From a virus (lineage: Duplodnaviria; Caudoviricetes), in the IMG/VR virus record IMGVR_UViG_3300043395_000730, positions 1-60,875 of that record: DNA of 60,875 nt; one strand, given 5' to 3'. Below, piece by piece: positions 297-60,578 of this stretch. The position numbers and the translations under genes were made by a program. The notes under the pieces are model-generated. The model worked only from the letters and a program-made list of their open reading frames with translations, searched no databases and was not told the origin of the DNA. Numbering within the stretch: the stretch's first letter is position 1; each line of letters opens with the position of its first letter.

Positions 297-1024
297 CTCT
301 CTCTGTATTTGTTAGCGTATTCAATAGCGATGTCTAACCGCTCGTCTATCTTTTTTATGTCATCAACTGTAAGCTCAACTGGAACTATCACTTGTCGTAA
401 TGAGTCTGGAAGATTGTCCATGTAGTGAAGCTCGTCACCCTCACCCTCTGGTATCAACTCCTCTGGAGTGTTTACAAGCATGTACGCTATGCGACCATAA
501 CGCCAGTGATTACCTGTTGATTTTGTAAGCATAAATAGGTATAACTTTACTTGCCACTCGTACTGCGGATTACGTGCCTTCTCTATGGTCTTTGGAAATG
601 TCTTCTTTGACCATGGAGACTTTATGTCAACAACAATACCATCCCCAGTAATGTCTGGATGCCCCGAAAGTAATCCATCTCTATACGTTAGATGCATGTC
701 AGACTTCTCATGGCTCGTAAAGTTTATACGATTGTACAACTCAATCGCCTCACCCTCAACCATTGTACCCTTTGTCGTCTCACGACTACTGAACGATGGC
801 TTATAACCCCATAACTCTTGCTCTACAGCCTCCTCTATGAGCGTCCTTGCGCCAGCAGATAACTCGTATGGAGCATCCCTCTTTTGTATTAACTCATCTC
901 TTGTTATGGCTTGCTTCTCCGTTAACTTTATCTTCTCCATTAACGAGTCAAGTGTCTCTTGCTGTTTTAACGTCAAACCAGCATCACCCAAAAACAATGG
1001 ATACGCAGACGAACACCTAAACAT
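287..1024 (-). CDS. YqaJ/lambda-exonuclease-like PD-(D/E)xK recombination exonuclease
   Basis: Motifs G..E..A, HPDI, VDIKSPW, YEWQVKLY. Confidence 0.75.
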   Translation of the reverse strand: MFRCSSAYPLFLGDAGLTLKQQETLDSLMEKIKLTEKQAITRDELIQKRDAPYELSAGARTLIEEAVEQELWGYKPSFSSRETTKGTMVEGEAIELYNRINFTSHEKSDMHLTYRDGLLSGHPDITGDGIVVDIKSPWSKKTFPKTIEKARNPQYEWQVKLYLFMLTKSTGNHWRYGRIAYMLVNTPEELIPEGEGDELHYMDNLPDSLRQVIVPVELTVDDIKKIDERLDIAIEYANKYRERWT

Positions 1025-1875: not shown

Positions 1876-2288
1876 GGTAAGTACCCGTAATTTAGTCCGT
1901 CAACTCTAAAGTAGAATGTCTCCTCTTTTCGATGGTGAAACAAGTAGATGTCGTACTTGTTGTTGTCGTTCTCCACAACAGCCATCGTTTTGACGTGGTG
2001 CTTGGTCTCCCAACTATGGAAGAAAGGAACTGGGCTCTTGGAGTTGAATATCATCGTGTCCAAGATGTAGTTGTTGTTAGTTAGAACTATAGTTAAAATT
2101 ACTCGTATGCGTTGTTTTGAGTAGTTACGCATTACACGAGTGTGCTCGTTAACTTTCTTGAAGTTCCTGCTGTCTACCGACCATTGCGCATCGGCAACGA
2201 ACGGTGCGGTCATCAAAGCGACCGTTAGAATAATCGATTTATACATAAGATTGAAATTAAGAGTAAAAAAATCATAGCGATGTACCAC
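1872..2288 (-). CDS. Hypothetical exported protein (true start probably MYKSIILTVALMTAPFVADAQ)
   Basis: Signal-peptide-like segment ending A-D-A/Q, typical of Bacteroidota secreted proteins. Confidence 0.55.
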   Translation of the reverse strand: MVHRYDFFTLNFNLMYKSIILTVALMTAPFVADAQWSVDSRNFKKVNEHTRVMRNYSKQRIRVILTIVLTNNNYILDTMIFNSKSPVPFFHSWETKHHVKTMAVVENDNNKYDIYLFHHRKEETFYFRVDGLNYGYLP

Positions 2289-2510
2289 ACCACTAAGAAT
2301 AGAATTAATTTAAGTCGCATAGATTTATAGGTATTTGGACAACGGACTCCTCGTAACTTATTATTATAACTCCAAGCATAGCTGACAGCATATCTATCGT
2401 CTCGTCTATGTCGCTTGTCGTTACCTTTATAACGTCACCTGTGTCCGTTGTTACGTTATACGTTTTCATTTTTAGCTTTTATAACTCGCATGTATAACTC
2501 CCAATTGAAG

Positions 2511-2741
2511 TTAGTCCACCACTGATAGTTTTTCATCTTTTATTTTTTTTATGGTTGCACATATCTCATAGTACTCAAGGTCAAGAGCGCATTCAGACAG
2601 CTCGTCTAACATCCGCTCGAAGCTCTCTCTTTGTCTTGAGTCATAAGCTGACAATAGGACGTCATGCCTATCGTCGGGAGTCATCTCCCTTAACCTCTCC
2701 ATGGTGTCCATGAAGATGTCTTTAAAAATTTGTTCTAGCAT
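2511..2741 (-). CDS. Hypothetical protein
   Basis: 76-aa ORF in operon. Confidence 0.65.
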   Translation of the reverse strand: MLEQIFKDIFMDTMERLREMTPDDRHDVLLSAYDSRQRESFERMLDELSECALDLEYYEICATIKKIKDEKLSVVD

Positions 2742-2965
2742 AGTATGATTTTTACATTAGTAAATTTAATTATTATTTCGCCAGTTAGGTTGTCTATCTC
2801 AGACCGATGGGCATATCGTTTGACTAATTGGCTGTCGTACTTGGTGCGTAGTATCAAACGTCCTCCAATGACTTTTGAACTGCTGAACTTTATGTGGCTA
2901 AGACCTAAGTTCTCGATGGTAAATTTTATTATCTCGTTCATTTTGTATCGCAAAAAATTCCACAT
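2735..2965 (-). CDS. Hypothetical protein (start probably MNEIIK near 2941)
   Basis: ORF coupled to neighbours. Confidence 0.55.
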   Translation of the reverse strand: MWNFLRYKMNEIIKFTIENLGLSHIKFSSSKVIGGRLILRTKYDSQLVKRYAHRSEIDNLTGEIIIKFTNVKIILC

Positions 2966-3675
2966 TCATAAGACCGCATACCTCTACCCTTAGCATCCTC
3001 GGGTAACTCGTCAAGAAATATACGTTTGCCTTTATATCTAACTAACCGAACACCTAAACGACGGCTCTGCTCTGCCCTCTCTCTAAATTGTTCGGGATGC
3101 ATTCTCCTCACATGATTCCAATACGTTGGAGATGTAGCCTTTACACAGCCTATGCAGTTGGCGTTGGGATATCCCATCATGTATACCCTAGGTAGGGTTA
3201 TACCTGCACTAGTTATGATGTCAAAACACATCTGCTTTGTTATCCCTTCGTCAATCAATACTGGCAAAACATTAGACCTCTCGTACTTGACAAAACGCTC
3301 ATGCCTGTCTACCTCGTCTGCCGTGAATCCTAACACATGGTAGTCTATGTAGTTTGATTTCTCAAACTCGTACCTAGCTCCCTTCTTTAAGACAAGTGTA
3401 CACGGAGCACCATTTATACCGCTCATGTACTTACGCTTGTCCCATATGTCAACAGCTGATGTTGTGTTGGCTGTGCTGTTGACTGCTTGGATGATTGGTT
3501 GACCTATCCATTTTGATACGTCATCAAGAAATCTTCGGTTGTCAGAGTCCTCCTCGTCAACAGGATTGTTTACGATTAGAATGTTGTGAGTGTCTCCATA
3601 TTTCTCTATTGTCCGTTTTGAAGCTACGGCACTAGCGGCTCCACATGAGAACCATACGACAATTGTTTTTTTCAT
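2938..3675 (-). CDS. PAPS-reductase-like adenine nucleotide alpha hydrolase (PP-loop) protein with Cys clusters
   Basis: N-terminal VVWFSCGAASAV PP-loop-like motif; APCTLVLK, NANCIGCVK, C-terminal ECGIFC. Confidence 0.65.
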   Translation of the reverse strand: MKKTIVVWFSCGAASAVASKRTIEKYGDTHNILIVNNPVDEEDSDNRRFLDDVSKWIGQPIIQAVNSTANTTSAVDIWDKRKYMSGINGAPCTLVLKKGARYEFEKSNYIDYHVLGFTADEVDRHERFVKYERSNVLPVLIDEGITKQMCFDIITSAGITLPRVYMMGYPNANCIGCVKATSPTYWNHVRRMHPEQFRERAEQSRRLGVRLVRYKGKRIFLDELPEDAKGRGMRSYECGIFCDTK

Positions 3676-4854: not shown

Positions 4855-5070
4855 TTACATTTCTATTCCGTACTCTATTGCTCTCATTTCATCTATGTCA
4901 CCATCCTTGGTTAATATCCCGACCTCTATTAGTCGGGATGCCATCCGTCCGTAATGACCTTGTAGCGACCATGCACTACCATTTTTTACAAGTTCAGCGA
5001 ACATGTATACCATCTCAGCACCATCAAGCATCCCGCTCTCGTATGCAATTATTCTATCTATTGTATCCAT
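4855..5070 (-). CDS. Small phage protein
   Basis: IIAYESG...AWSLQGHYGRMASRLIEVG; 71 aa. Confidence 0.7.
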   Translation of the reverse strand: MDTIDRIIAYESGMLDGAEMVYMFAELVKNGSAWSLQGHYGRMASRLIEVGILTKDGDIDEMRAIEYGIEM

Positions 5071-5074
5071 TTTA

Positions 5075-5356
5075 TTAGTTATTATATTCGTTACCTTCTG
5101 CGTCGTACCACTCGTCCTCGTCTATTTCTTCCCACTCGGTGTAGTAGTAGTACTCCTCGTTGTAGAAGTACTCAAATATGTCCTCGTCTTCCGTTAGGTC
5201 TGCTGAACGATTGCCGTTGCAGTCTACCCAATCAAGTCCTTTTAAGTGTTCTAATAGGTGTTCATTTGTGCTGAAGTATAGTTCTCCATCACCTACCACA
5301 TATCCTTCGTTCATGCCACGTCCTGTAGCATCGCAACGTCTTGCAAATTTTTCCAT
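5075..5356 (-). CDS. Highly acidic small early protein
   Basis: D/E/Y-rich C-terminal half; AGAAACCATG start context. Confidence 0.7.
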   Translation of the reverse strand: MEKFARRCDATGRGMNEGYVVGDGELYFSTNEHLLEHLKGLDWVDCNGNRSADLTEDEDIFEYFYNEEYYYYTEWEEIDEDEWYDAEGNEYNN

Positions 5357-5496
5357 GGTTTCTAAATTATTTCTATTGATAATACGTCATAACCCTCGTA
5401 TGACATTAAACTCATTACCTTTCCTTCGTTCCAAGCTTGTACGTAAAACACGCCTTGCTTGGTTGTTACAATGTATTTATTCATGATTTCTAGTTA

Positions 5497-5844
5497 TTAA
5501 AATGTTGTATCGGGACTTGAATATCCGTAATTCTCTTTATCTTTAATCTCGTATTCTTGGTTTTCTCTTATAAAGAAAACAAATCCATTTTGTAGTTCAA
5601 TCAATCTGCCACGCTCAACTAATATAACATGGTTGGTATTTATAACTAAGTCTCTTTTATTAATTGTTTTGATACTCATAAAATTTGAATCTAAATTTAG
5701 ATTTTGTTTGGTAAAAAAGATATCCGTTTGATTTTGCGAAGTTATCCCCGTTACTGGCATAAATATAGTTATCTTACTAACATTATTGTGCTCATTTACT
5801 TTTAAGTTTTCCATTACTTTTGATTCTACTCTAATTACTCTCAT
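5497..5844 (-). CDS. Hypothetical early protein
   Basis: AGAAATCATG start context shared with neighbours. Confidence 0.65.
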   Translation of the reverse strand: MRVIRVESKVMENLKVNEHNNVSKITIFMPVTGITSQNQTDIFFTKQNLNLDSNFMSIKTINKRDLVINTNHVILVERGRLIELQNGFVFFIRENQEYEIKDKENYGYSSPDTTF

Positions 5845-5856
5845 GATTTCTAGTTG

Positions 5857-6063
5857 TTAAATTGAACATTTGTTTATCTCTCCTAAGTAGAAGTCATACC
5901 AATCGTTAAATCGGTCTTGTATCTCTTCGGTATATGTTAACACTTCAGCGTTTATGTCTTGGTACATATCATCCTCATTGTTGATGATATCTCCCGACTC
6001 TTGAAATGTTCTGATATGAGCTAACTCACTAGCTAACTCAAGCACGTTGATTGTTGTTTCCAT
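5857..6063 (-). CDS. Hypothetical acidic early protein
   Basis: 68 aa; AGAAACCATG start context. Confidence 0.65.
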   Translation of the reverse strand: METTINVLELASELAHIRTFQESGDIINNEDDMYQDINAEVLTYTEEIQDRFNDWYDFYLGEINKCSI

Positions 6064-6068
6064 GGTTT

Positions 6069-6281
6069 CTATTTTTCAGTTAAATTTTCACATGTAGCGT
6101 AGTCATATATCTGCTCAAATATTTTCTCTACTATGTATTCATTTGTTAGCGCATCGTATAAAATACCTTGAGCTGTTTCGTCATTACATTCAAATCTATC
6201 TTGAACGTCTTGAATTGTCCATAAGTTATCTACAAAATAACCTGCATCTCTTAATACTTGTTTTGCTTGTTGTACTGTCAT
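6069..6281 (-). CDS. Hypothetical early protein immediately downstream of hammerhead 1
   Basis: 70 aa; AGAAATCATG start context. Confidence 0.7.
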   Translation of the reverse strand: MTVQQAKQVLRDAGYFVDNLWTIQDVQDRFECNDETAQGILYDALTNEYIVEKIFEQIYDYATCENLTEK

Positions 6282-6299
6282 GATTTCTATTTTTTAAAT

Positions 6300-6356
6300 G
6301 GTTAAGACGGCACTTTGCCAGTGCCGTTTCGGTCAGTTAGACCTCGTCAGTTAACC
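6300..6356 (-). ncRNA. Type I hammerhead ribozyme 1
   Basis: GGTTAA-CTGACGA-GGTC(TAACT)GACC-GAAAC-GGCAC(TGGCAAA)GTGCC-GTC^TTAACC: full catalytic core and three paired stems. Confidence 0.93.
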
Positions 6357-6594
6357 TTGATTTCTTGAACCTAATCAAGTGACCTTCTTGGTAGTTTAAA
6401 AGGTCGTCTATCCTATCTCTTGGTATGGTAATCTTACCATGGATTGGATGGTTGATTTCGTTGATGCCAACGAATTGCTTGTTGCGAATCAATTGCTCTC
6501 GAACTGATAGTCGTCTTGTAGTTCCACTCGTCTCGTTGAAACCTACGTTTATTTTACCTGTTTTCATATGGTTAAAATTAATGTGCGTTACCAA
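6337..6594 (-). CDS. Hypothetical early protein (true start probably MKTGKINV); 3' end overlaps hammerhead 1
   Basis: ORF track; TAA stop lies in ribozyme loop II. Confidence 0.6.
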   Translation of the reverse strand: MVTHINFNHMKTGKINVGFNETSGTTRRLSVREQLIRNKQFVGINEINHPIHGKITIPRDRIDDLLNYQEGHLIRFKKSRLTDEV

Positions 6595-6617
6595 GTCGCA
6601 CCCCTTGTTTTGTTATT

Positions 6618-6893
6618 TTACGCGAAAATCTCGCCTTTCATCTTTTTATACATAAAGCATTTCTCAAATCTTGAAGGAATCAAATTAAATAAATCAATTC
6701 TCTCTTGCTTCATCTCGTTTCCAAATCTCGCCATCAAGCGTTGATGCCAATTTTCTTGAGTTTCTTTTGACCTATTAAACGGATTTCCTTCCTCTGCAAA
6801 CTTAGAGCAATACTTGTAATAAACATCAGAGTAGATGTAACCTTGAATGTCCATCATATTTGATGCGTTTTCGATTTTTTCTATTGTTTTCAT
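6618..6893 (-). CDS. Hypothetical early protein
   Basis: 91 aa; AGAAATCATG start context. Confidence 0.65.
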   Translation of the reverse strand: MKTIEKIENASNMMDIQGYIYSDVYYKYCSKFAEEGNPFNRSKETQENWHQRLMARFGNEMKQERIDLFNLIPSRFEKCFMYKKMKGEIFA

Positions 6894-6898
6894 GATTT

Positions 6899-7039
6899 CT
6901 ATTTATTATATACCTCATCCAATTGGTAGCCGTAACGCTTCTGCATGTAAGCTACATAGTTATTAAAATGTTGTTCGTTCTCAAAGTCCTTCGTAATGAT
7001 TATCTGCTCTCTACGATGGTTAAAAAATACTAGTATCAT
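6899..7039 (-). CDS. Small ORF, 46 aa (MILVFFNHRREQIIITKDF...)
   Basis: Translated by hand; ATGA overlap with the upstream small ORF. Confidence 0.55.
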   Translation of the reverse strand: MILVFFNHRREQIIITKDFENEQHFNNYVAYMQKRYGYQLDEVYNK

Positions 7040-7146
7040 CGCGCTCTGAATGGAATTAATAATCTCTTAGTCTTAACTAATGTTCCGTTTAGAAAGAATC
7101 CCCATACCTCGAAGTTCCCCTCAATTCTTAAAATTTTTGTGCTCAT
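7036..7146 (-). CDS. Small ORF, 36 aa (MSTKILRIEGNFEVWGFF...) downstream of hammerhead 2
   Basis: Translated by hand; TAACCATG start context. Confidence 0.55.
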   Translation of the reverse strand: MSTKILRIEGNFEVWGFFLNGTLVKTKRLLIPFRAR

Positions 7147-7163
7147 GGTTATTAAATTAAATT

Positions 7164-7222
7164 GGTTAAGACGCGTACTGGCAAAGTCCGCGTTTCGTCC
7201 ATTAAGGACTCGTCAGTTAACC
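7164..7222 (-). ncRNA. Type I hammerhead ribozyme 2
   Basis: GGTTAA-CTGACGA-GTCC(TTAAT)GGAC-GAAAC-GCGGAC(TTTGCCA)GTACGC-GTC^TTAACC; one mismatch in stem III. Confidence 0.92.
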
Positions 7223-7548
7223 TAGTAAAAGTATCCTTGATACTCACATCTTGAAGGCTCTTCATTTCTCCATGTCCACTCGTCTGAGTTTTCAACGATA
7301 TTTGGGAATATCCAATCACCATTGCTGAATGATATCTTTATCCCTTCATCTCGTGTTGATTTGCCGTTCATCTCAGCTACTAACTCGTAATAGTCCTTAC
7401 CCCCAAAATCACCATATCCGTTGTACTCATGCTCTACCCAAGTGTTTCCCTTGTTGTCCATTAGTACTACCTTCATAGTGTCCATTGAAGAATGAATGTT
7501 AGCAATTGACTTGTTTGTGTCTTGTGTTTTAAAACTAAAGAATCCCAT
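7222..7548 (-). CDS. Hypothetical phage protein
   Basis: MGFFSFKTQDT...YNGYGDFGGKDYYEL...QGYFY; stop abuts hammerhead 2. Confidence 0.75.
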   Translation of the reverse strand: MGFFSFKTQDTNKSIANIHSSMDTMKVVLMDNKGNTWVEHEYNGYGDFGGKDYYELVAEMNGKSTRDEGIKISFSNGDWIFPNIVENSDEWTWRNEEPSRCEYQGYFY

Positions 7549-7553
7549 GACGT

Positions 7554-7934
7554 TTAAATTTTAAAGATTTTTACCCCGTTAGTTACTATTAAATCGAATG
7601 TTTGTTTATCTACGTTACTTCCGTTCAAAGAGAAGAATGGGTTTACTCTTGGATTGTAAGATATCTCGTCTCCGTTCACATTAGACAACTCAACAATCTC
7701 GTATCTCTCACAAGATATCCAAGCACATCTCTCCTTGTGTATCTCACCCTTGTTAATCTTCTCAGCTCTTGTGCTAGAATTGTGTAAGTAGCATCCGTAC
7801 ATAACAATCATATGAGTAGAAGGGTTAACCAAGATATCTTTGCTACCCGATTTTATTTTAGACTTGCTTTCCAATTCGTGTATCTGCAAAAAGCCTTTGT
7901 TTACTGCTCCTAAATTTCTTCTTACTCCAAACAT
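7554..7934 (-). CDS. Hypothetical early protein downstream of hammerhead 3
   Basis: 126 aa; ISYNPR motif. Confidence 0.7.
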   Translation of the reverse strand: MFGVRRNLGAVNKGFLQIHELESKSKIKSGSKDILVNPSTHMIVMYGCYLHNSSTRAEKINKGEIHKERCAWISCERYEIVELSNVNGDEISYNPRVNPFFSLNGSNVDKQTFDLIVTNGVKIFKI

Positions 7935-7952
7935 GAGTTCTAAATTTTAAAT

Positions 7953-8009
7953 GGTTAAGACGACATCTTTTGAATGTCGTTTCGACTATTGAAGTCTCAT
8001 CAGTTAACC
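7953..8009 (-). ncRNA. Type I hammerhead ribozyme 3
   Basis: GGTTAA-CTGATGA-GAC(TTCAATA)GTC-GAAAC-GACAT(TCAAAAG)ATGTC-GTC^TTAACC. Confidence 0.93.
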
Positions 8010-8122
8010 TAAATGTAAATCGGTGGAACGTGCCCTGTTACGAGTTGATAGATGGCATATGAAATACCGAATATAACTCCAAACGCTAAACTGCTTGTCC
8101 AAACTGCAAATACTACTTTCAT
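8009..8122 (-). CDS. Small membrane peptide, 37 aa (MKVVFAVWTSSLAFGVIFGISYAIYQLVTGHVPPIYI)
   Basis: Translated by hand; single hydrophobic helix; stop abuts hammerhead 3. Confidence 0.6.
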   Translation of the reverse strand: MKVVFAVWTSSLAFGVIFGISYAIYQLVTGHVPPIYI

Positions 8123-8145
8123 GGCTATAAATTTAAATGGTTAGT

Positions 8146-8192
8146 GCCGTGCTGAGTTTCGCTCTCAGTAAATGACTCATAGTCAACACGGC
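8146..8192 (-). ncRNA. Minimal tRNA-like element (acceptor-like stem, one hairpin, T-arm-like hairpin)
   Basis: GCCGTG-T-TGACT(ATG)AGTCA-TTTA-CTGAG(AGCGAAA)CTCAG-CACGGC, followed by the same TAACCATTTAAA leader as the hammerheads. Confidence 0.6.
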
Positions 8193-9145
8193 TAAGTTTT
8201 TTTTCTTGGTGGAAGTATGGTTTAACGCGCTATACCAAAAACGAATACCGAATCACCCTCGGTAGGGGGCACTACCACCCTCAGATTTTTCGCGTCCTTC
8301 CTTTGGTTATGAATTTTCACGGCTTTTTCGACTTCTTGACTTTGAGTATGGCGCATCACTGCGGTTTATCTCTGCTTCAATCTCCTGTAAGCTTCAGTGC
8401 CGATATTAATACCCTCGGAGGGGGAGTGGCTCTTTGCTCAACGGGTCAGCCTATCCCGTGCGGTGTATTTTATAGTGCTATCGCTTTCGCACCTCGCTTT
8501 ATTAGACTCGCGGTCTCAGTCCAACTATGTGACCACGTTTGGTCGTTGATTCTGAAACAAAGTAACGGCAACTGATTGGATTAATAACAAACTTTTTGCT
8601 ATACGTTTTTAAAAATACGTGTTTATACGTATAAGGATCTAAGTGTTTATACGTAGTGATGACACAATGAGAGAGCTAGTTTATGACTGGCAAAACCTTA
8701 TTGGTATTTGGATTGATGTGAATAACATATAAATTGCAATAAATTCATTTGGGGATTTGTTTACATAGGTGTTCCAACCCCTACCCTCCAATCAATCGCT
8801 CTGAAACGTAGAACGGACGGTCGATTGGTCGATTGGTCTGCAGTTCTATTTAACATAATACATGTTATAGTACAAGTTGTGTGGGCAAATTTAAGGGTGG
8901 ATGAATTGGTCTCAGATAATAACCACCACCCCACCCCTACGCACAAGCACACCCACCCCTACACACGTGCGCGTAGCGTACATGCAGGCAGGCAGGCAGG
9001 TCGCTAGGCAAAAAGCCAAAAAGTCCGACCGAACTTTCCAAAATGCATACCCCCATGTCGATTTTCAAGTCGTTTCGGTCGATCGGGCTGGAGCGCCAGA
9101 TGGGGGTATTACCCAAAAATTCAGTATATTTACCAAAAAATATAT

Positions 9146-9391
9146 ATGCCTGGCAAAAGAAAGATAGTTATAAAGGACAACACGTATATCAGTGACGGTA
9201 AGGGTGGTAAGGTAAAGGCTCCTTGGATGGCTGGTGACATTGACGTTACCAAGACGATAACAACACCTAGGAAGACCAAAACAATCAGAGACTACTCATA
9301 CACTGATGCTGGTGTCAAGAAAACATTCCGAGACGTCACGGTAGTAAAAAAGGGTAAAACAGTCAAACAAAAAACAATTAGCCGTGGTTAA
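9146..9391 (+). CDS. Basic hypothetical protein
   Basis: First ORF of the + strand block; K/T-rich. Confidence 0.6.
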   Translation: MPGKRKIVIKDNTYISDGKGGKVKAPWMAGDIDVTKTITTPRKTKTIRDYSYTDAGVKKTFRDVTVVKKGKTVKQKTISRG

Positions 9392-9475
9392 AAAACACAT
9401 CAAACGGAAGAACACGATCAAGAAGAACTTGGATCTAATAAAAAAGAATTCATTATCTTTACAAAAAATAAAGTC

Positions 9476-9727
9476 ATGCCAAACGATAAAAAAATAAAGA
9501 CGAAAACCGTAGAACATTCTACAGCTAATAAGTTTGTAGCGGTTCCTAATCCATTCAGAACTATTAAAAAAACTCCTTCTGGTTTGCCTACAAGGTTTTA
9601 TAATGAGGTTCCAGTTAAAACAACAACAACTGTTTTTAAAGACGGTACTGTAAAAGTAAAAACAAACAAACGCATTGATCCAAATAATCCTAACGTTATA
9701 AATAATAAGAGGTGGATGAAAGGATGA
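9476..9727 (+). CDS. Basic hypothetical protein
   Basis: K/T-rich; AAAGTCATGCC start context shared with 13673. Confidence 0.6.
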   Translation: MPNDKKIKTKTVEHSTANKFVAVPNPFRTIKKTPSGLPTRFYNEVPVKTTTTVFKDGTVKVKTNKRIDPNNPNVINNKRWMKG

Positions 9728-9848
9728 CAGTAATCCTACAGTTTAGTATACCTTACGGCCTTAATGTTGGTTTTGAGTATTACAAGGCTGAGGAAGGTTT
9801 AGACAATGAGCTTCACCTAAATTTGTTAATTTTTAAAATTATGTTATT

Positions 9849-10937
9849 ATGGCATTAAAAAGAGCACCAAAGGACGTAGATCCGATAACTGGAGCTAGGA
9901 TAGCTTCAAAATCACTATATGGCAAGAAGGCTGGAAATGAGACCATATCATCATGGCCAGATGTTAGGAATATGTATAAATCTGGTAAGCTAAAGATAGA
10001 GAATCTAAAGAACTACGACAAGCCAGTAATTGACTACATCACTGGGAAAACAGATAAGATAAGTGACGTTGAGTACGATGAGCCTAGAATGTATACATCT
10101 AAAACAGCGGCAGGTGGTAGTAAAATTGATGTTCGTTTTGACTATAAGCCAGGTGGTAGTTTTTACAAAAAAGCATATGCTGCTGAGGGTAAAAACAGAC
10201 CAAAAGAGTCTGAAGGAATGGAGAGACAGTACTATGCTGGAATGGCTAGTGGTAAGATGGGTAGTTTCGGTAGTGGGGGATCTCGTTATAAAAACCCTAC
10301 TATTGACGTACCTACAGTTAAAAAGTCAGATCCAAGAGAGGACATTGGAAGAATGCCTACACTTAAGGCTAACAAAATAACTCGTAAACCAAACTTGGTA
10401 GAAAGACAGAAAGAAGAAGAGTGGACGGCCCCTTCAAAAAGAACTCCAAGAGGCGGTGAGACTGGAGCAAAATCAATAACATATTTTAAAAATAAAGGTC
10501 AAAGAGGCTACACATATGGCAAGGAGCAAAAGATGGCTGCTGCTTATTATGGTATGGGTCAAGGTGAGGGTACTGACGTTGCTAGGTATAAGAGTCCAGG
10601 AGAGCTATCTGAATACAGAAAAGAACTGAAGGGATATATAAAGGAATCAAGATCAGACAGAAAAGAAAAAACTTTGCCTGCTGAGAAGAGAGAAATTACA
10701 AAAATGATAAAATTGTATAAAGAGGAAGGCAAGCAAGCAAAACTCGGACAGAAATACATAGAGTCTCTTCCTCAAGGCCAAAGATATATGGGTGTTCGTA
10801 CATCAGATGTCAAGAGAGGTGGAAGTTTAGAGGATGTTAAAACGTCAATAAAGCCAAAGAAACCAATAAGGTTTTTCACAACAGAGGCAGTGCAGGGTGC
10901 TACAGCACAAGACTTGAAGAAAAAAACCAAAAAATAG
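9849..10937 (+). CDS. Large K/R/G-rich hypothetical protein
   Basis: 362-aa ORF followed by a terminator. Confidence 0.75.
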   Translation: MALKRAPKDVDPITGARIASKSLYGKKAGNETISSWPDVRNMYKSGKLKIENLKNYDKPVIDYITGKTDKISDVEYDEPRMYTSKTAAGGSKIDVRFDYKPGGSFYKKAYAAEGKNRPKESEGMERQYYAGMASGKMGSFGSGGSRYKNPTIDVPTVKKSDPREDIGRMPTLKANKITRKPNLVERQKEEEWTAPSKRTPRGGETGAKSITYFKNKGQRGYTYGKEQKMAAAYYGMGQGEGTDVARYKSPGELSEYRKELKGYIKESRSDRKEKTLPAEKREITKMIKLYKEEGKQAKLGQKYIESLPQGQRYMGVRTSDVKRGGSLEDVKTSIKPKKPIRFFTTEAVQGATAQDLKKKTKK

Positions 10938-10945
10938 ATAAAACA

Positions 10946-10968
10946 GCCCTCCAATCGGAGGGTTTTTT
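10946..10968 (+). terminator. Rho-independent terminator
   Basis: CCCTCC-AATC-GGAGGG followed by TTTTTT. Confidence 0.8.
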
Positions 10969-10980
10969 GTTATTTATTAT

Positions 10981-10988
10981 TATATTTG
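10981..10988 (+). promoter_or_regulatory. Bacteroidota-type -7 promoter element upstream of groEL
   Basis: TATATTTG matches TAnnTTTG. Confidence 0.7.
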
Positions 10989-11005
10989 TGTCAAAATATA
11001 ATAAA

Positions 11006-12574
11006 ATGGTAGTAAAACATGTTCATTTAGGCCAAGAAGGCCAACAAAAGCTCAAAAAAGGCATCAAGACGATCGCTGGAGCAGTCAAAAGTACATTAGG
11101 TGCGCGAGGGCGCACGGTACTAATAGAGTCAGAGCACCATGTGGGTGGTATAACAGTAACAAAGGACGGTGTAACGGTCGCTAAGTCGATAAACTTGTTT
11201 GATCCGACTGAGAACTTGGCTGTTATTATGATGCGCCAGGCTGCTGAGAAGACAGCAACGGTTGCTGGTGACGGTACAACCACATCTATAGTATTGGCTG
11301 AGGCTCTTATCAACTCTTCTGACGTACACTTATCTGACACAGACAACGTGACTGAGGTTATAAGAGAGATAAACGACCTAACAAAGGACGTTGTGGCGTA
11401 TTTAGACAAGAAAAGTAAAAAGGTAAAGGGTAAAAAGTTGGTTGATGTAGCCACTATAAGCGCAAACAACGACAGAGAGATCGGTAAGATGATCGCTAGT
11501 GCGTTCAACGAGGTTGACGTTGTTACTGTTGAGAACAGTATGACAAGCAACACATATGTCGAGATAATAAAAGGTATGAAGATCGACCGTGGAATGACGT
11601 CACCTTACTTTATCACAGACCAAAAGAAGCAAGAGTGTGTTCTTGACAACCCATACGTGTTGATATGCGATCACGAGATAAATAACTTGATATCTATCGA
11701 GAGTATATTAAAGCACTGCGTTATGAACCAAAAGCCGTTATTGATTATTGGTACGTTAGGCCAGAACGCTATGAACACATTAAACTTAAACGTGGCTAAG
11801 GGGCAGATCAAGGCGTGTAACATTCAGCCACCATCGTTTGGGTACCGCACAAAGGACCTTATGGAGGACATAGCTATCGCTACAGGCGGTACGTTCTTCT
11901 CTGAGTCTACTGGTGACGATTTGTCATTAATAACTGTAGCTGACCTAGGTCGTGCGAACCGTATTGTTGTGAGTAAGGGTATGACGGTATTTATGCCAAA
12001 CGCTGAGAGGGCTGATGCTATCGACACACAAGTTAGTCAGCTAAAGGACTCTAGATCTGAGATGTCATCCGACAAGGAGTTGCTTGACTTTACGAACGAG
12101 CGTATTGCAAACCTATCTGGCGGTGTTGGTGTTATATATGTTGGTGCCTTAAGTGACATTGAGCAGAAGGAGAAGAGAGATCGTATTGACGACGCTGTGT
12201 GTGCTGTAACTGCTGCACTAGAGGAGGGTATACTTCCAGGTGGAGGTATAGCGCTAGTTGACGCTGCATCATTCACACTACGTGGAGACAGTACTGCTTG
12301 TAAGATAATGCGTGACACTGTGATCGCTCCGTTCTATCAGATATTAATTAACGCAGGTAAGGACCCAGAGGAGATAAAGGCTAATATGTTGCCAATAGAG
12401 AACGAGGGGTATGACGTTAAGAACGAGCAGTACGGTGACATGTTAAAGCTTGGCATCATTGATCCAGCGAAAGTTACAAAGAACGCACTGTTAAACGCAG
12501 TGTCTGTAGCTACTACTATAATGAGCACAAATGCAATAATAACAAATGTAAGAGCAGATGAGAGTATTAAATAA
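11006..12574 (+). CDS. groEL: Phage-encoded chaperonin GroEL (Cpn60)
   Basis: AVKSTLG, VTKDGVTVAK, AGDGTTT, GGG and GIIDPAKV motifs; start moved to ATG 11006 after the promoter; no GGM tail. Confidence 0.95.
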   Translation: MVVKHVHLGQEGQQKLKKGIKTIAGAVKSTLGARGRTVLIESEHHVGGITVTKDGVTVAKSINLFDPTENLAVIMMRQAAEKTATVAGDGTTTSIVLAEALINSSDVHLSDTDNVTEVIREINDLTKDVVAYLDKKSKKVKGKKLVDVATISANNDREIGKMIASAFNEVDVVTVENSMTSNTYVEIIKGMKIDRGMTSPYFITDQKKQECVLDNPYVLICDHEINNLISIESILKHCVMNQKPLLIIGTLGQNAMNTLNLNVAKGQIKACNIQPPSFGYRTKDLMEDIAIATGGTFFSESTGDDLSLITVADLGRANRIVVSKGMTVFMPNAERADAIDTQVSQLKDSRSEMSSDKELLDFTNERIANLSGGVGVIYVGALSDIEQKEKRDRIDDAVCAVTAALEEGILPGGGIALVDAASFTLRGDSTACKIMRDTVIAPFYQILINAGKDPEEIKANMLPIENEGYDVKNEQYGDMLKLGIIDPAKVTKNALLNAVSVATTIMSTNAIITNVRADESIK

Positions 12575-12821
12575 ATTCCTACTAGTAAAGAGACAGCAAG
12601 ACAGCAACAACATGTCAACGACTGGTTTCATGTATGGAGCTGACGATATGAGGGAGTTACGGTACCAAAAGGCTACCGTAATCTCTTTCGGTCAAAATGT
12701 AAGCGGTGTTGAAGAGAGCAGTGAGATACTGTTCGACAAGGTAGCTGGACATGACGTATTGATAGACAACGAGAGGTTAACTGTCATTCAAGAAAAGGAC
12801 GTTGTTTGCGTTCTTCGTTAA
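12558..12821 (+). CDS. groES: Co-chaperonin GroES-like protein
   Basis: Overlaps groEL; 87 aa; ATVISFG...ILFDK..G...VIQEKDVVCVL pattern. Confidence 0.75.
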   Translation: MRVLNKFLLVKRQQDSNNMSTTGFMYGADDMRELRYQKATVISFGQNVSGVEESSEILFDKVAGHDVLIDNERLTVIQEKDVVCVLR

Positions 12822-19629: not shown

Positions 19630-20190
19630 ATGAAGTCGCCATATTGCTTTATCATCAAAGCTGTTGATGGGAGGCGATATGATAACATCAGAAATTACGA
19701 AGGTAAAGAGTTTATCATAAGTTCATCCCAGGAAGATCATAAGGTAGCAAACAGATTCGCTACCGTTATATCAACACCTATATATTACAACGGTCCAATA
19801 GAACCAGGCGACATTGTTGTCGTCCATCATAACGTGTTTAAATTTTATTACGACATGAAGGGCAGACAAAAAAGCAGTTGGCATCACTTGACTGACGATC
19901 TGTTTATCGTAGAGACCGATCAAGTATATCTGTATTCCAGAGATGGAGGCAGATGGGCTGCTCCGTCACCATTTTGTTTCATTAGGCCAATACCTTCTGA
20001 AGACAAAATATTCAGCTCGACATCTGGGCTTGAAGAACTATGGGGTGAGTTGGTATTTAAGAACGAAGAAATGACAGAAGTCACCGAGGGTGACATCGTA
20101 TCATTTACTCCAGAGAGTGAGTATGAGTTCAGAATAAATGAAGAAGTTCTTTACAGAATGTACAATAGGAATATATGTCTAAAAAAATAG
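19630..20190 (+). CDS. Protein with two tandem GroES-like beta-barrel repeats
   Basis: Repeated IEPGDIVVV and VTEGDIVSF motifs with ATVISTP and LYRM...I. Confidence 0.5.
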   Translation: MKSPYCFIIKAVDGRRYDNIRNYEGKEFIISSSQEDHKVANRFATVISTPIYYNGPIEPGDIVVVHHNVFKFYYDMKGRQKSSWHHLTDDLFIVETDQVYLYSRDGGRWAAPSPFCFIRPIPSEDKIFSSTSGLEELWGELVFKNEEMTEVTEGDIVSFTPESEYEFRINEEVLYRMYNRNICLKK

Positions 20191-28951: not shown

Positions 28952-29272
28952 ATGAACAGAAAGTTTTTACAATTTACGATCGGAGCAGCTAACGCACTTC
29001 CAAAGGCTTTGATTTCAGCTAATGCTGAATATCTAATTACTATGCCTTCTACATCAACATTAGTGTTGACTATTTTAGGTGGTGTTGCTACTGCTGATGT
29101 TATCACCATTACATTTACTACTGCTGATGCTACTTATGCATCTCACTATGCAGTTGTTAATGCTTTGGCTAATGCTAATAGTGCATCTTCTAATCCAGAT
29201 GCTATTATTGTTCCAGCATTGCCTTTGGTTGGTGCTACACAGCAACTGATTACGTCTGTAGCTATTGCATAA
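28952..29272 (+). CDS. Small Ala/Thr-rich putative virion (decoration) protein
   Basis: Own promoter and terminator; capsid-like codon bias. Confidence 0.6.
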   Translation: MNRKFLQFTIGAANALPKALISANAEYLITMPSTSTLVLTILGGVATADVITITFTTADATYASHYAVVNALANANSASSNPDAIIVPALPLVGATQQLITSVAIA

Positions 29273-38127: not shown

Positions 38128-41100
38128 ATGAACGATAAATTACAACAACTTTATAATCTATACAAGAGTAAAGGTTTAATTAATACTACAGATTTTAATA
38201 CATTCGCTTCTGCAAACAGTCAGCAAATCCAACAACTATATAATCTTGGAAAGAAAAATGGCCTGTTTAATACTACAGATCTTAATACATTTAGTTCTGC
38301 ATTTAGTCCTCAACAAAAATGGAGACAAGTAACTGAGAAGGAAAGTGCAGGTAGATTGAATTACAGAAAAGATGATTTCAGAACTTGGGACATAGTAGAA
38401 GAGACTCAGAAGGGAATGACCAAGGAGGAGAGAAAGAAAACTGGGTTTGATTATACGCCAGAACAAATAGCTGCTGGTAAAAAAGCTGTTGCTATGGAAG
38501 AGGCTCCAGTTATTGAATACTCTGACCTTAAACTGAGAAGAGGTAAGGATGGCGTTTTCTACAAGGTAGAAGGTAATAATTGGTACGAGGTGGCATTTCC
38601 TAGAGATATGTCAAAAAATATTATAAACGAAAGTGTAGTAAGTCTTGAGGGCTCTGATCTTTATAAAATAAATGATCCTAAAAAAGTAGAGAGCTTAAAC
38701 ATTGAGTTTGGCGAAAAAGTAAAATTACCTAATGCTGGTTTTGATACCGATCAAAAATTAATCAAGTCTGGCATAGATACAAAAATACCATCTGTTCTAA
38801 ACAAAGCAGTCAAACCAGAGGATGATCCGTATGATGTTTTTGGAGGATGGGACGATAATACTAGAGGTCTTAGATTTAGAAAGGACGATTATTCTAATGT
38901 TTGGCTGCAAATCAAACCAGGTGTTGATTCAGGATGGTCTGTAGTTACAGAAACCATGGCTAAAGAATTAAACAAGCGTTATGGTGGTAAGTATGGTTCT
39001 GTGCCTAAACAAGCTGAGAACTTGACTGATTACCAGATATTAAACAAGACGTACGGACAAGAAGGTGGTTCTGGAGTCTTAAAAAGAGAACTACTTCCAG
39101 ATGGAGAGCCTACTTTTGGACTTCCGAAATCAGTAGAGAATGCAGGTTGGTTTCAAACACTTTACCCTCAGACAATGATGGGTCAAGTTGTAAATGCTCA
39201 AGAGGCGAGAAGAAGAGGTATGACATCTTTTGATGACAAGGTACATAGATTCGTATCGAATAATAATATAGCTAGACTTGAAGAAGAAGAGGCTGTAAAA
39301 ATGCTTACAAATGAGTTCGGTAGATATGGTTTTGAGTTTATAGAATCTGGAGTTAATGACGAGATGATCGTAAGAACAAAAGATGGCTTACGTGAAGTAG
39401 TAATAAATCTTGATACTGATGATCTAGGAGAAAATATAAGACTTCAAGATTTCTTAATAGTTAATATGGACCCATCTGCTTACGAGGCAGGTGATCAAAA
39501 ATACGCAGAGCTTATAAATAGAGACAGACGTCTCATTTATTCTAATAATGGTAGCAACAGTGCATCTCTTTATAAAGACCTAAAAGAGTTATTTAACGAT
39601 GAGGACTATAAAATATGGGCTCAAAATTTACCTTACGGTGAACTAGAACAAGAGGTAAACTATAGGATAGGTGAGTATAGAAGCTTAATGAATAAACCTG
39701 GAGTTAATAGCTCTGAAGTATTTAAAGATATGGAGACGTTTAAAAAATCTCCTATGTATCAACAATATCAAAAAAATAAGAAAGAGGCATTTGAGCTCGA
39801 AAGAATGAAAATGCAGTCACTGTATGATGAAGTTAGATTAGATCCAGGACAAAATTCAAGAGCTAGACAAAAGGTTAGAATGTTCTTGTCTGATAAATAT
39901 TTAGACAAAGCAAAAACTGAGTACAATGCAATGCTAAATGATATCAATCAGTCTGCTAAATTTTTAAAGACTAGATATGATGAATATCATAATGAACTTC
40001 AGAAATTAAACACGTCAAACTTAACGCCAGAACAAATAAGAGTTAAGAAAGAACAACTTGACAAAATGGCGTTACAGCTGGATGTAGATCGATCTAACTT
40101 AATTAGAAGACAAAAGGCCGTTACAACTGAAGCCAAGCAGCTTGAGTATTTAACAGGTAAGTATGTTGTTGACGTGGCTAAAGAAGGTGGATTTATTGGT
40201 GGGTTGATGAATAGCTTCTCAGACGGTATATCAAAAATGATAAAGACAGGAGATGTTGTTGGAAGGTTGCAAGCAGAGACAAAGGGTTCTCAGATTGCAG
40301 ACAACATGACAGAAGAGGAAAAGAGATACTATAAAACAAAAGGATATTCATTAGAAGAGATTAAAATAGCAGAGGCTAATAAAGCTTGGAAGGAATCAAA
40401 AGAAGATCTTTCTAACAGGATGAAGTCCGCTATTGGTGATCTAGCTACAACTAAACAGTACCAACAGTCTGAAGATAGAGGTATTGTTAGTAAAGCATTG
40501 TTTGGTCTTGCAGAATCTCTTCCAGCAATGGCTACATCATTTATTAATCCATACGTTGGTTTTGGATCATTGTCAGCTCAAGCATATTCATCTTTAGAGG
40601 ATGAGATGTTAAATGATCCAGATTTTGAAACAACGTCACTTACAGAGATGAACTTAATAGCATTACCATATGCTATGGCTATGGGAGCCTTGGAAAAGAT
40701 TGGTCTTAGTTCAGCTATGTCTAAAAACCCTCTTGCTAAGTCTCTTATAATGAAGTCTATACAAGGGGCTGTTAAAAAGACAACAGGTAAAGGATCAGCA
40801 GAACTTTTACAAAATGTACTAGACAAAGAGATCAAGTCGAATATGGCTAAGTTTGGAATAAGGATAGTCGGTGGTGCACTAACCGAGGCTGAAACTGGGG
40901 CTACTCAGTCATTGGTACTTGATATTGGATATAAGAGCTTGATCAACGAAATAAAAAAAGACGATAGACTAGCAAGCGAACTAACTGGAGGTGAGTTTTT
41001 TGATACCCCAGATAGCTTTATGGATGGTCTAAAGATGGTTATAGAGGATGGTATAGCTGAAGGTATTGGCGGTATGGTTATGAGTGGATTTGGATCTATG

Positions 41101-59818: not shown

Positions 59819-59890
59819 CTGCCTAGAGTTTTTACCTATGTGGAGGCTAACCTCAGAACCCTAACTGCTGTCCACCATGAACAAATTTGT

Positions 59891-60016
59891 TGTCAGGACA
59901 GGATTCGAACCTGTATCTATGATGGGATTTCTCCTAAGTATGAGGTGTGCTTACGATTATATTTTCAAATCTTTATCACTCCATCCTATAGCGTCTACCA
60001 ATTCCGCCACCTGACT
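59891..60016 (-). ncRNA. tRNA-like RNA with Leu/Ser-type D and T arms but no canonical anticodon arm
   Basis: GTCAGG/CCTGAC acceptor, TGGCGGAATTGGTAGACGC D arm, ACAGGTTCGAATCCTGT T arm, about 75-nt interior. Confidence 0.7.
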
Positions 60017-60236
60017 ATAAAATAACCCCTAGCAGTGGCTATTGATCAGATAGTCTTACTAGGGGGTTGTATCAGTTATAAGGACACGTCCAATTTCCCG
60101 ATACAGAGAAGGCCATACAAGTGAGCTGATCTAACGGTAAGCTCGATGGCACTGGGCCTGTGGCTATCTCACCACAGGGGGGCGTGTAGCAGGCTCCGCT
60201 CCCTGCTCGGTGCTTGTACTTTGCACTATTAAGCGT

Positions 60237-60578
60237 TTAGGTTAATGTTAACAAGTATAATGTCTCGTTAACTAGACCTATCATCTCATCCATTATGTTC
60301 TGCAAGTCAGATGGATAGTTAGGTCTCTCTTCCTCAAGAGTTTTTTGCATCATCTTTAAATGACTGATCGAATCTTCGTTCTTTGATTCTGGTATAACTA
60401 TCGGAAGTCTTTTGTTTCTACCGAAATATTTCTCAGTAAATGAGTCTGTAAGATCAAGTATCCCATCATAGTAAGACGCTAAAGCCTTGTGCTCTGCGTA
60501 AGATGTTGTCTGTAAGTGTGCGATGTGCATTATGTCTCTACTCTGAAACAACATGCCTATTAGTTTATTTGCTGTCAT
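60237..60578 (-). CDS. DUF5856-like ferritin/Dps-fold protein
   Basis: HIAHLQTTSYAEHKAL..YYD...LQNIMDEM...TLYLLTL. Confidence 0.7.
   Translation of the reverse strand: MTANKLIGMLFQSRDIMHIAHLQTTSYAEHKALASYYDGILDLTDSFTEKYFGRNKRLPIVIPESKNEDSISHLKMMQKTLEEERPNYPSDLQNIMDEMIGLVNETLYLLTLT

Follow-up and report, generated by a model that had tools for sequence, protein, structure and literature searches.

A tRNA-like RNA element of 47 nt shares the ribozyme slot of early genes in a group of podophages and is probably an RNA-processing signal

The first early gene of a Flavobacteriaceae-type podophage, the whole genome of which is the complete 60,875-nt virus record analysed here (IMGVR_UViG_3300043395_000730; the window), is preceded on the minus strand by E4, our label for the core three-way-junction RNA at 8146..8192. 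We show that E4 is a real sense-strand RNA structure, conserved in related uncultured phage contigs. It stands in a slot, the position just upstream of the ~24-nt A/U-rich leader of an early gene, which in this phage group holds one of four things: a hammerhead ribozyme, a Pistol ribozyme, a solitary tRNA, or E4 or its looser relatives. From comparative sequence analysis, we give a probability of roughly 55% to the reading that E4 is a minimal mimic of a tRNA acceptor stem and T arm, cut by RNase P and a tRNA 3′-end nuclease as plant mitochondrial t-elements are.

A first-pass annotation of this DNA had described a GCCGTG/CACGGC closing stem, a TGACT/AGTCA hairpin and a 5-bp hairpin with an AGCGAAA loop joined directly to the closing stem. 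All of these parts are present, read on the minus strand; the interval it gave, 8123-8195, comprises E4 plus its leader, and the core itself (8192..8146) is 47 nt long. The parts of E4 and the start of the gene behind it are as follows, the pairings being read from the sequence.

8192-8187 with 8151-8146, minus strand: stem A, GCCGUG paired with CACGGC, 6 bp
8186, minus strand: U, the junction between stem A and hairpin B
8185-8173, minus strand: hairpin B, UGACU-AUG-AGUCA
8172-8169, minus strand: UUUA, the junction between hairpins B and C
8168-8152, minus strand: hairpin C, CUGAG-AGCGAAA-CUCAG, with a 7-nt loop at 8163-8157, abutting stem A with a 0-nt spacer
8141..8145, minus strand: single-stranded tail A-C-U-A-A, equivalent to discriminator, C74 and A/U trailer
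8145-8123, minus strand: E4 tail and leader, AC-UAACCAUUUAAAUUUAUAGCC, 23 nt
8123..8143, minus strand: A/U-rich early-gene leader UAACCAUUUAAAUUUAUAGCC, with no Shine-Dalgarno sequence; similar leaders stand at many early genes
8122-8120, minus strand: start codon AUG of the first early open reading frame (ORF)
8009..8122, minus strand: first early ORF, 37 codons and stop, encoding a small hydrophobic protein

Folding 8138-8205(-) with ViennaRNA gives exactly this three-way junction as the structure of lowest free energy (-17.5 kcal/mol, z = -3.15), with junction lengths of 1, 4 and 0 nt, and 1 of 200 shuffles was as stable. Stem A and hairpin C form a stack of 6 bp and 5 bp with no spacer on the 3′ side, in which every pair is supported by comparison, 8 of the 11 by double changes. 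E4 has, in other words, the acceptor-like stem coaxial with a T-arm-like hairpin that is expected of a t-element-type RNA.

The comparison rests on two scans. Viral contigs scanned for an exact 17-mer yielded 14 loci, 6 of them with E4; in one of these six (L010) another gene lies downstream. A looser scan fixed only the loop and tail (AGCGAAA-N11-ACTAACC) and gave at least 114 stretches, each of which was scored for pairing in stems A and C; among the matches listed, eight rows had stem A at 6/6 and stem C at 4/5 or better, and these eight alone shared the rest of E4. Row selection used stems A and C and is therefore partly circular for those two, while stem B, the junctions and the leader played no part in it. 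In the alignment of eight distinct E4 sequences (A2), all 126 of 126 cells pair (100%), and both sides have changed in 11 of 16 pairs (five in stem A, three in stem B and three in stem C). In 500 shuffles the percentage paired, the numbers of pairs and of cells with double changes, and the covariation score all stayed below the observed values; the count of further pair types was matched by 13 of 500. Sliding the 3′ partners by 1-3 columns lowers pairing to 25-48%. The first pair of stem A is G-C in all eight sequences and the loop-closing pair of hairpin C is G-C in seven; the AGCGAAA loop, identical in all close homologues, is the only strictly conserved unpaired block of the close family. 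Covariation between the 5′ and 3′ strands means that selection acts on the fold as a whole, and we rejected on the same ground an attP site or a fragment of a tRNA gene as the origin of the conservation.

A covariance model from related phages, which the first-pass annotation had proposed as a check, was built (R1) and has covariation in all three stems. On the window it gives E4 84.9 bits; the runner-up, with 17.5 bits, is a simple hairpin at 29224-29265 that lies antisense to one of the late genes, and it was rejected as a second copy. Each of five related records has a single strong match (67-86 bits), one copy per genome. At E<=0.01, R1 matches 9 of 28 viral stretches from further scans; it also matches 9 of 12 metagenome stretches, 8 of them strongly and one new variant among them, and the variants gained from further scans are L175 and L181. 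In 185,579 species genomes a pattern scan picked up 13 loci; these reach at most 17.1 bits with R1 and have mispaired stems, none of them is real, and a host-derived motif was rejected. Elsewhere the returns were nil or slight: blastn of 7500-9000 against 50,697 phage records found no match, a search with neighbouring proteins in viral contigs found one weak locus only, R1 with a quick filter found nothing in MW202828.1, elemoA_7-9A, phi46:3 or phi40:1, and an unfiltered run over 60,000 of the 60,850 nt of MW202828.1 found nothing above 13.7 bits. As far as these scans reach, E4 appears to be confined to a small phage clade.

The strand of the signal is given by the wobble pairs: G.U and U.G pairs fit the gene-sense strand only and become C.A mismatches on the opposite one. 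This bears on the reading of E4 as an intrinsic terminator for plus-strand transcription, which could appeal to the stem followed by TAAG-T8 on that strand, to a plus-strand fold with z = -2.50 and to the A-run that lies upstream of E4 in four lineages (in the window, A8 at 8204-8197, just upstream). The run is, however, absent in the L004/L010 lineage, a terminator needs neither conserved loops nor a three-way junction, and this one would be reached only by antisense transcription of the early genes. With the T8 run not conserved and the wobble pairs fitting the minus strand only, we rejected it, and we consider it, together with the hammerhead relic discussed below, very improbable.

The first-pass annotation had placed E4 in the fourth of a series of ribozyme slots. 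The three other slots do hold real type-I hammerheads, on the minus strand before the later genes of E4's operon, with the form GGUUAA-CUGAYGAG-stem II-CGAAAC-stem III-GUC^UUAACC.

7953..8009, minus strand: hammerhead 3 (type I), core 8003-7979, cut between C7959 and U7958, 24 nt before the AUG at 7934
7164..7245, minus strand: hammerhead 2 (type I, with a RAGATH-1-like upstream hairpin), core 7216-7192, cut before U7169, 23 nt before the AUG
6300..6356, minus strand: hammerhead 1 (type I), core 6350-6326, cut before U6305, 24 nt before the AUG at 6281

Rfam scores these weakly, the RAGATH-1 hammerhead model giving 27.0 and 25.4 bits against a gathering score of 56.3. The stop codon of the first early ORF, the protein of which is kept in L004-type relatives, overlaps the first base of the next hammerhead. 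From cut to AUG the distance is 23-24 nt in six of six hammerheads (24, 23 and 24 in the window; 23, 24 and 23 in the related contig G006), and from the end of the E4 stem to AUG it is 23 or 24 nt in seven of seven lineages; the coordinates bear out the earlier statement that the 3′ edge of E4 lies 23 nt from the ATG, matching the hammerhead spacing. In G006 (L140, the record of L010), hammerhead-core sequences stand before four consecutive early genes (sense ~2260-3620), three of them fitting the strict cut-site pattern, and E4 stands at the first gene. Hammerheads are found only in the window lineage and G006, and E4 is present in four related records that have no match to the hammerhead pattern; E4 is thus not dependent on hammerheads. 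The slots are modular, with contents that change between close relatives.

E4 is itself not a hammerhead, as had been recognized at the outset: the core C3-U4-G5-A6-N7-G8-A9 ... G12-A13-A14 is missing, with no CUGANGA, and the Rfam hammerhead models do not match it. Fragments resembling CU-AUGAG and CGAAAC can be read in the window copy and might mark a decayed, functionless relic, but these letters are not kept in homologues, in which hairpin B varies (GAUACGAUC, UAGUAAGACUA); the core bases G5, G8 and A9 are missing, and E4 occurs in contigs without hammerheads. We rejected this origin too.

Two cultured phages extend the set of slot contents to a second ribozyme class, annotated in neither record.

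Tenacibaculum phage Gundel_1 (L179, MT732474.1) 2564-2642, plus strand: Pistol ribozyme in an early-gene gap, 65.6 bits against a gathering score of 34.5
Cellulophaga phage phi46:3 (L194, NC_021792.1) 19528-19461, minus strand: Pistol ribozyme in an early-gene gap, 46.5 bits, above the gathering score

The predicted Pistol cut lies 24 nt from the AUG in Gundel_1 and 23 nt in phi46:3. Genuine tRNAs occur in the slot as well. A contig that also carries E4 at its first gene (G005, L138) has a solitary tRNA-Arg at 733-807 (-), scoring 71.9 bits and starting 2 nt after the preceding stop codon, which is followed by A-C-UAACC-UUAAUUUAUACAAC-AUG. Phage phi40:1 (L199, KC821612.1) has two solitary tRNA-Glu genes, at 8604-8676 and 10574-10646 (-), with ACUAAU... 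and an ORF behind each. All three tRNAs have their acceptor end 21 nt from the AUG. Of 21 tRNAs examined, these 3 stand alone before a gene; two array tRNAs are followed at 46 and 39 nt by short ATG frames (50 and 40 codons) that are probably spurious. The solitary Arg and Glu tRNAs between protein genes look like tRNA punctuation of phage operons.

The tail provides a further point of equivalence. N73-C74 is encoded in 29 of the 30 tRNA genes that ARAGORN finds in these phages, and the base after C74 is U in 15, A in 10 and G in 4, never C. No CCA is encoded, and without a second C the 3′ ends of these tRNAs must come from a cut followed by CCA completion. The E4 tail A-C-U-A-A has the form of these trailers and recurs after the tRNA-Arg of G005 and both tRNA-Glu genes of phi40:1; within the E4 family the tails are A-C-U, or A-C-A in one. 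On its 3′ side, therefore, E4 joins the following sequence as the phages' own tRNA genes do. A slot shared with Pistol, hammerhead and genuine tRNA, and a tail shared with the phage tRNA genes, strongly support an interchangeable processing module.

The leader behind E4 is less specific. Leaders of the UAACCAAUUAAA type (23-24 nt, A/U-rich and without a Shine-Dalgarno sequence) precede many early genes in the window and four related contigs. The 12-mer TAACCATTTAAA occurs three times in the window, a count that is not significant alone, at least three copies at <=1 mismatch being found in 15 of 100 shuffles. The first-pass annotation had E4 followed by the same leader as the ribozyme slots; the leader does follow E4, but TAACCATTTAAA is a generic early-gene leader and not peculiar to the slots.

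Looser relatives were sought with our own descriptor scripts, which ask for a 6-bp stem A, a small hairpin and, directly next to stem A, a second hairpin of 4-5 bp with a 7-nt loop. The scripts recover E4 in every genome carrying it, together with relatives in gene-sense intergenic slots.

Gundel_1 1286-1332: E4-like, loop UUCGUUA, found by descriptor
Gundel_1 3285-3328: E4-like, loop AGCGAUA, found by descriptor
phi46:3 19138-19095: E4-like, loop UUCGCUA, one gene after the Pistol, found by descriptor
MW202828.1 44485-44531: E4-like, loop CUCGCGA, tail ACUAACC, found by the descriptor alone

The loops of hairpin C span a range from near-canonical T-loops to that of E4 (UUCGUUA, UUCGCUA, CUCGCGA, AGCGAUA, AGCGAAA). 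Across this wide family, unpaired conservation is limited to the loop CG and the tail, and the junctions vary (U, A or none; UUAA, UUUA, CUA, AU or C); its MAFFT alignment misaligned the 5′ halves, and the covariation statistics cover the close family only. So low a number of conserved unpaired bases is more in keeping with an RNA recognized by its shape than with one that has a catalytic core. In phi18:3 and phi13:2 (L224 and L225, locus 701-775) the module of phi46:3 is found again, 92-95% identical and with different flanking genes; it lies directly after the anti-restriction gene ardA in both, and in phi18:3 an in-frame ATG ~25 nt past the module lies upstream of the annotated gp044 start, which may be wrong. 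R1 gives a weak match (18 bits) in the gap between gp7 and gp8 of Gundel_1, with the Pistol two genes upstream. Gundel_1 also has, at 786-844 (+), a tRNA-like element found by eye and Rfam and not by the descriptor, in which an acceptor-like stem of 8-9 bp is combined with a small hairpin and a T-arm of canonical sequence, GAGG-UUCGAUU-CCUU. Rfam matches this element only as tRNA-Sec at 17.5 bits (E = 7.6); it lies upstream of the first small ORF, an unannotated hydrophobic one of 43 codons starting at 888.

E4 matches no known family in Rfam 15. The Infernal search that had been proposed as a check, RAGATH motifs included, found no match to E4 at the gathering score, and at E<=10 across 5000-12000 nothing at E4, nor in relatives L004 and L010. 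The Pistol, twister, twister-sister, hatchet, HDV-like, hairpin and glmS models likewise had no match at E<=10 over 5000-12000 or in L004 and L010. The same search detects the Pistol in Gundel_1 and is thus able to find ribozymes in this material. The RAGATH motifs compared were those in Rfam 15. A full-text literature search found no description of the element or of interchangeable tRNAs, mimics and ribozymes before phage genes, and on the strength of that search E4 is apparently undescribed, though it might overlap with an uncharacterized RAGATH candidate of Weinberg et al. 2015.

An element that matches no known family, stands in slots otherwise held at equal spacing by two self-cleaving classes, hammerhead and Pistol, and forms a compact conserved three-way junction with a conserved tail might be a ribozyme in its own right. 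E4 and its relatives would then be a new small self-cleaving class, a 45-50-nt three-way junction cut at its 3′ border within A-C-U-A to give a 5′-OH leader, and a third catalytic route, beside hammerhead and Pistol, to a fixed leader of ~23 nt. Genomic association with ribozymes is how Pistol, hatchet and twister-sister were discovered (PMC4604425). Several observations make this improbable for E4: known classes keep about ten or more invariant core bases, whereas the wide family keeps only the loop CG and the tail and its junctions vary; the proposed cut site lies outside the folded core, with no supported pairing found to bring it in; and real tRNAs with the same tail offer a simpler account. 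Of the two options that the first-pass annotation had attached to its interchangeable module, a substrate for host RNase P and RNase Z or a small self-cleaving RNA, the comparisons of slot and tail back the tRNA-like one, and the scarcity of conserved unpaired bases makes self-cleavage the less likely.

We therefore favour the minimal tRNA-like processing signal, in which we infer the cuts, enzymes and bonds from structure, conservation, covariation, strand and the equivalence of slot, spacing and tail. The 6-bp acceptor-like stem would stack coaxially on the hairpin with 5 bp and a 7-nt loop, which would mimic the T arm; the small side hairpin B would stand in for the D and anticodon arms; and the 3′ side would carry a tRNA-style trailer, A73-C74-U-A-A. 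In the transcript from the early promoter, E4 would form the 3′ end of a ~350-nt non-coding leader, and host tRNA-maturation endonucleases would recognize it by shape. RNase P would cut between A8193 and G8192, releasing the leader RNA, and a tRNA 3′-end nuclease (RNase Z where the host has one) would cut at or next to the discriminator, after A8145 or C8144, so that the first early mRNA would begin ~21-22 nt before its AUG. Hammerheads, Pistols and genuine tRNAs would yield the same short, unstructured leader without a Shine-Dalgarno sequence at other early genes.

Several observations weigh against this proposal. The acceptor/T stack has 11 bp in E4 and 12 in a tRNA, E4 has no RCCA for the P15 loop of RNase P, and its loop lacks the T-loop U54-U55, only C56-G57-A58 (loop positions 3-5) matching. 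The canonical T-arm motif GGTTCRANYCC is not found in E4, the loop of which is AGCGAAA, ARAGORN predicts no tRNA gene in the whole window, and the Rfam tRNA model (RF00005) has no match at E4, either at the gathering score or at E<=10 in 5000-12000. RNase Z (TIGR02651) is found in only 77 of 151 sampled Bacteroidota genomes, listed without family labels, so the host may lack it. The strictly conserved loop of the close family could equally be a protein contact. Among the looser relatives, the descriptor has a high background (80 loci against 40-57 in shuffles), the tail filter A?AC[AT]AA that reduces it (5 loci against 0, 2 and 0) was picked after the hits had been seen, and the distant members lie 25-40 nt from the AUG, not 23-24. 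For both RNase P and RNase Z a minihelix is a sufficient substrate, and with a stack of 11 bp the cut may be displaced by one base.

T-arms of the GGTTCRANYCC type are present only in other nearby elements: Gundel_1 786-844 and an insertion upstream of E4 in the L004 lineage. In L004, L005, L006, L012 and L015, this insertion lies ~40-10 nt upstream of E4 (L004 546-577) and carries a canonical T-arm, GGTGG-TTCGATT-CCACC, inside a CCTTG/CAAGG stem; ARAGORN finds no tRNA there, and L010 has a plain hairpin in its place.

Upstream, E4 is separated from the predicted early promoter by a long leader, and the early control region is laid out as follows.

8558..8654, minus strand: predicted early control region, conserved in relatives
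8654-8643 and 8630-8619, minus strand: two operator-like ACGTATAAACAC repeats
8591-8588 and 8565-8558, minus strand: promoter-like TTTG and TTACTTTG
8193..8552, minus strand: ORF-free leader of ~350 nt from the predicted early promoter to E4, with no convincing ORF

We take the TTTG...TTACTTTG arrangement to resemble the Bacteroidetes promoter consensus TTTG/TAnnTTTG. In close homologues, too, E4 follows operator-like repeats, a promoter-like TTTG...TTACTTTG and an ORF-free leader of 300-450 nt, the sequence of which is poorly conserved between lineages; in the close family E4 is always at the first early gene, the identity of which varies by lineage. The leader is not unusually stable (z = 0.10) and has no Rfam match, and we rejected the idea that it is a highly structured RNA. 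Two similar G+C-rich hairpins lie within it (plus-strand CCCTCGGTAGGGGG at 8256-8269 and CCCTCGGAGGGGG at 8412-8424). Contigs of one metatranscriptome (>=99% identity) cover 8204-8346, with adapter at both ends, and 8340-8533, and so reach along the leader as far as the A-run in front of E4. In that run (X23) contigs lie on the leader and none on E4 or the downstream genes, contig gaps not being counted as evidence; in another (X24), from a relative, E4 is spanned by one contig and a hammerhead by a second, which is uninformative either way. The contigs show only that the leader is present in the RNA library; they cannot show RNA ends, and DNA carry-over is possible. Processing at E4 may set the ~350-nt leader free as a small RNA in its own right.

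The same setting can be read in terms of an uncut structural or regulatory element, which might be a folded insulator or 5′ stabilizer that stops the long leader from base-pairing with the translation start region, or a protein site such as a nut/boxB-like antitermination site or a translational operator, with the GCGA/GNRA-like part of the conserved loop as the protein contact. An AGCGAAA loop that is the sole strictly conserved unpaired block is typical of contact with protein or RNA. There is one copy per genome, always between the early promoter with its leader and the first gene, whichever gene that is; lambda nutL is placed likewise, after the promoter and before the first gene. The RNA-library contig of the relative that spans E4 would also fit. 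On the other hand, relatives of E4 lie between ordinary genes too and not only behind promoters (phi46:3, phi18:3, phi13:2 and Gundel_1), the loop varies among those relatives, no protein emerged as a candidate to bind the element, and this reading accounts neither for the tRNA-type tail nor for the presence of ribozymes and tRNAs in the same slot. We judge an uncut element unlikely, though a more serious contender than a new ribozyme, and retain the processing signal as the preferred reading.

In the window at large, the minus strand carries the early and replication genes, which extend leftwards from ~8120 and continue round the end of the record, and the plus strand carries the late genes, from ~8900. 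For the terminase, identity is 67% with the uncultured podophage MW202828.1 and 37-42% with Flavobacterium 'elemo' and Cellulophaga phages. PHROGs annotation identifies a phage GroEL and two GroES-like genes (10967-12818 and 19630-20187, plus strand) and, among the structural genes, a single ORF of 3,702 codons (38128-49233, plus strand). At 59890-60016 (-) lies a tRNA-like gene that scores 34.3 bits with RF00005 and is not called by ARAGORN; its anticodon/variable region carries an insertion of 67 nt, its T-arm is canonical (GGTTCGAATCC) and its tail reads A-ACAAAUUUGUUC-AUG. Upstream of it is a G+C-rich ORF-free stretch of ~220 nt (60020-60240).

E4 can be set beside several known systems. 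Its closest parallel may be the t-elements and tRNAs of plant mitochondria, at the borders of which cuts by RNase P and RNase Z form mRNA 5′ or 3′ ends (PMC1920247). Both systems place tRNA-like folds or tRNAs within long transcripts and have real tRNAs and reduced mimics side by side. The t-elements are defined, in the same paper, by GGTTCRANYCC and a cloverleaf-like fold of ~74 nt, whereas E4 has 47 nt, one extra hairpin, the loop AGCGAAA and a place in a phage early operon, and its cutting is a prediction. With canonical tRNA (RF00005) E4 shares a first pair of the G1-C72 type, the stacked arm of 5 bp with a 7-nt loop, C-G-A at loop positions 3-5, and a discriminator A, C and A/U trailer as in these phages' tRNA genes; it has no D arm, no anticodon arm and no U54-U55. 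With the type-I hammerhead and Pistol of phage intergenic regions it shares slot, strand, the 23-24 nt to the start codon and phage group, while lacking the hammerhead core (CUGANGA...GAAA) and the Pistol pseudoknot. In MALAT1/mascRNA, a tRNA-like fold directly follows a long non-coding RNA, with an encoded A-rich tract just upstream, and the non-coding RNA owes its 3′ end to RNase P. E4 resembles it in following a ~350-nt non-coding leader with an A8 run; MALAT1/mascRNA is, however, eukaryotic and nuclear and keeps the cloverleaf, and in E4 the downstream product is an mRNA and the A-run is missing in one lineage.

A review (PMC6765202) treats the reason why bacteria and phages carry hammerhead, twister and Pistol ribozymes as an open question. 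The phage group described here amounts to a natural experiment on it, with a hammerhead, a Pistol, a tRNA or a mini tRNA mimic standing ~23 nt before early genes that lack a Shine-Dalgarno sequence. All four module types create, or are expected to create, an RNA cut at the slot, and the cut that they are expected to share suggests a leader-making role: the job of the ribozymes would be to provide every gene within a long early transcript with a short, unstructured leader of its own, by a cut that the phage seems to obtain either by RNA catalysis or by borrowing the host's tRNA-processing enzymes. The relevant elements are carried by cultured phages (Gundel_1 and Cellulophaga phi46:3, phi18:3, phi13:2 and phi40:1), which makes the idea directly testable. 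If it is true, E4 would also give synthetic operons in Bacteroidota a natural tag of very small size that marks where to cut. The interest lies chiefly in what an interchangeable set of modules says about why phages carry small ribozymes.

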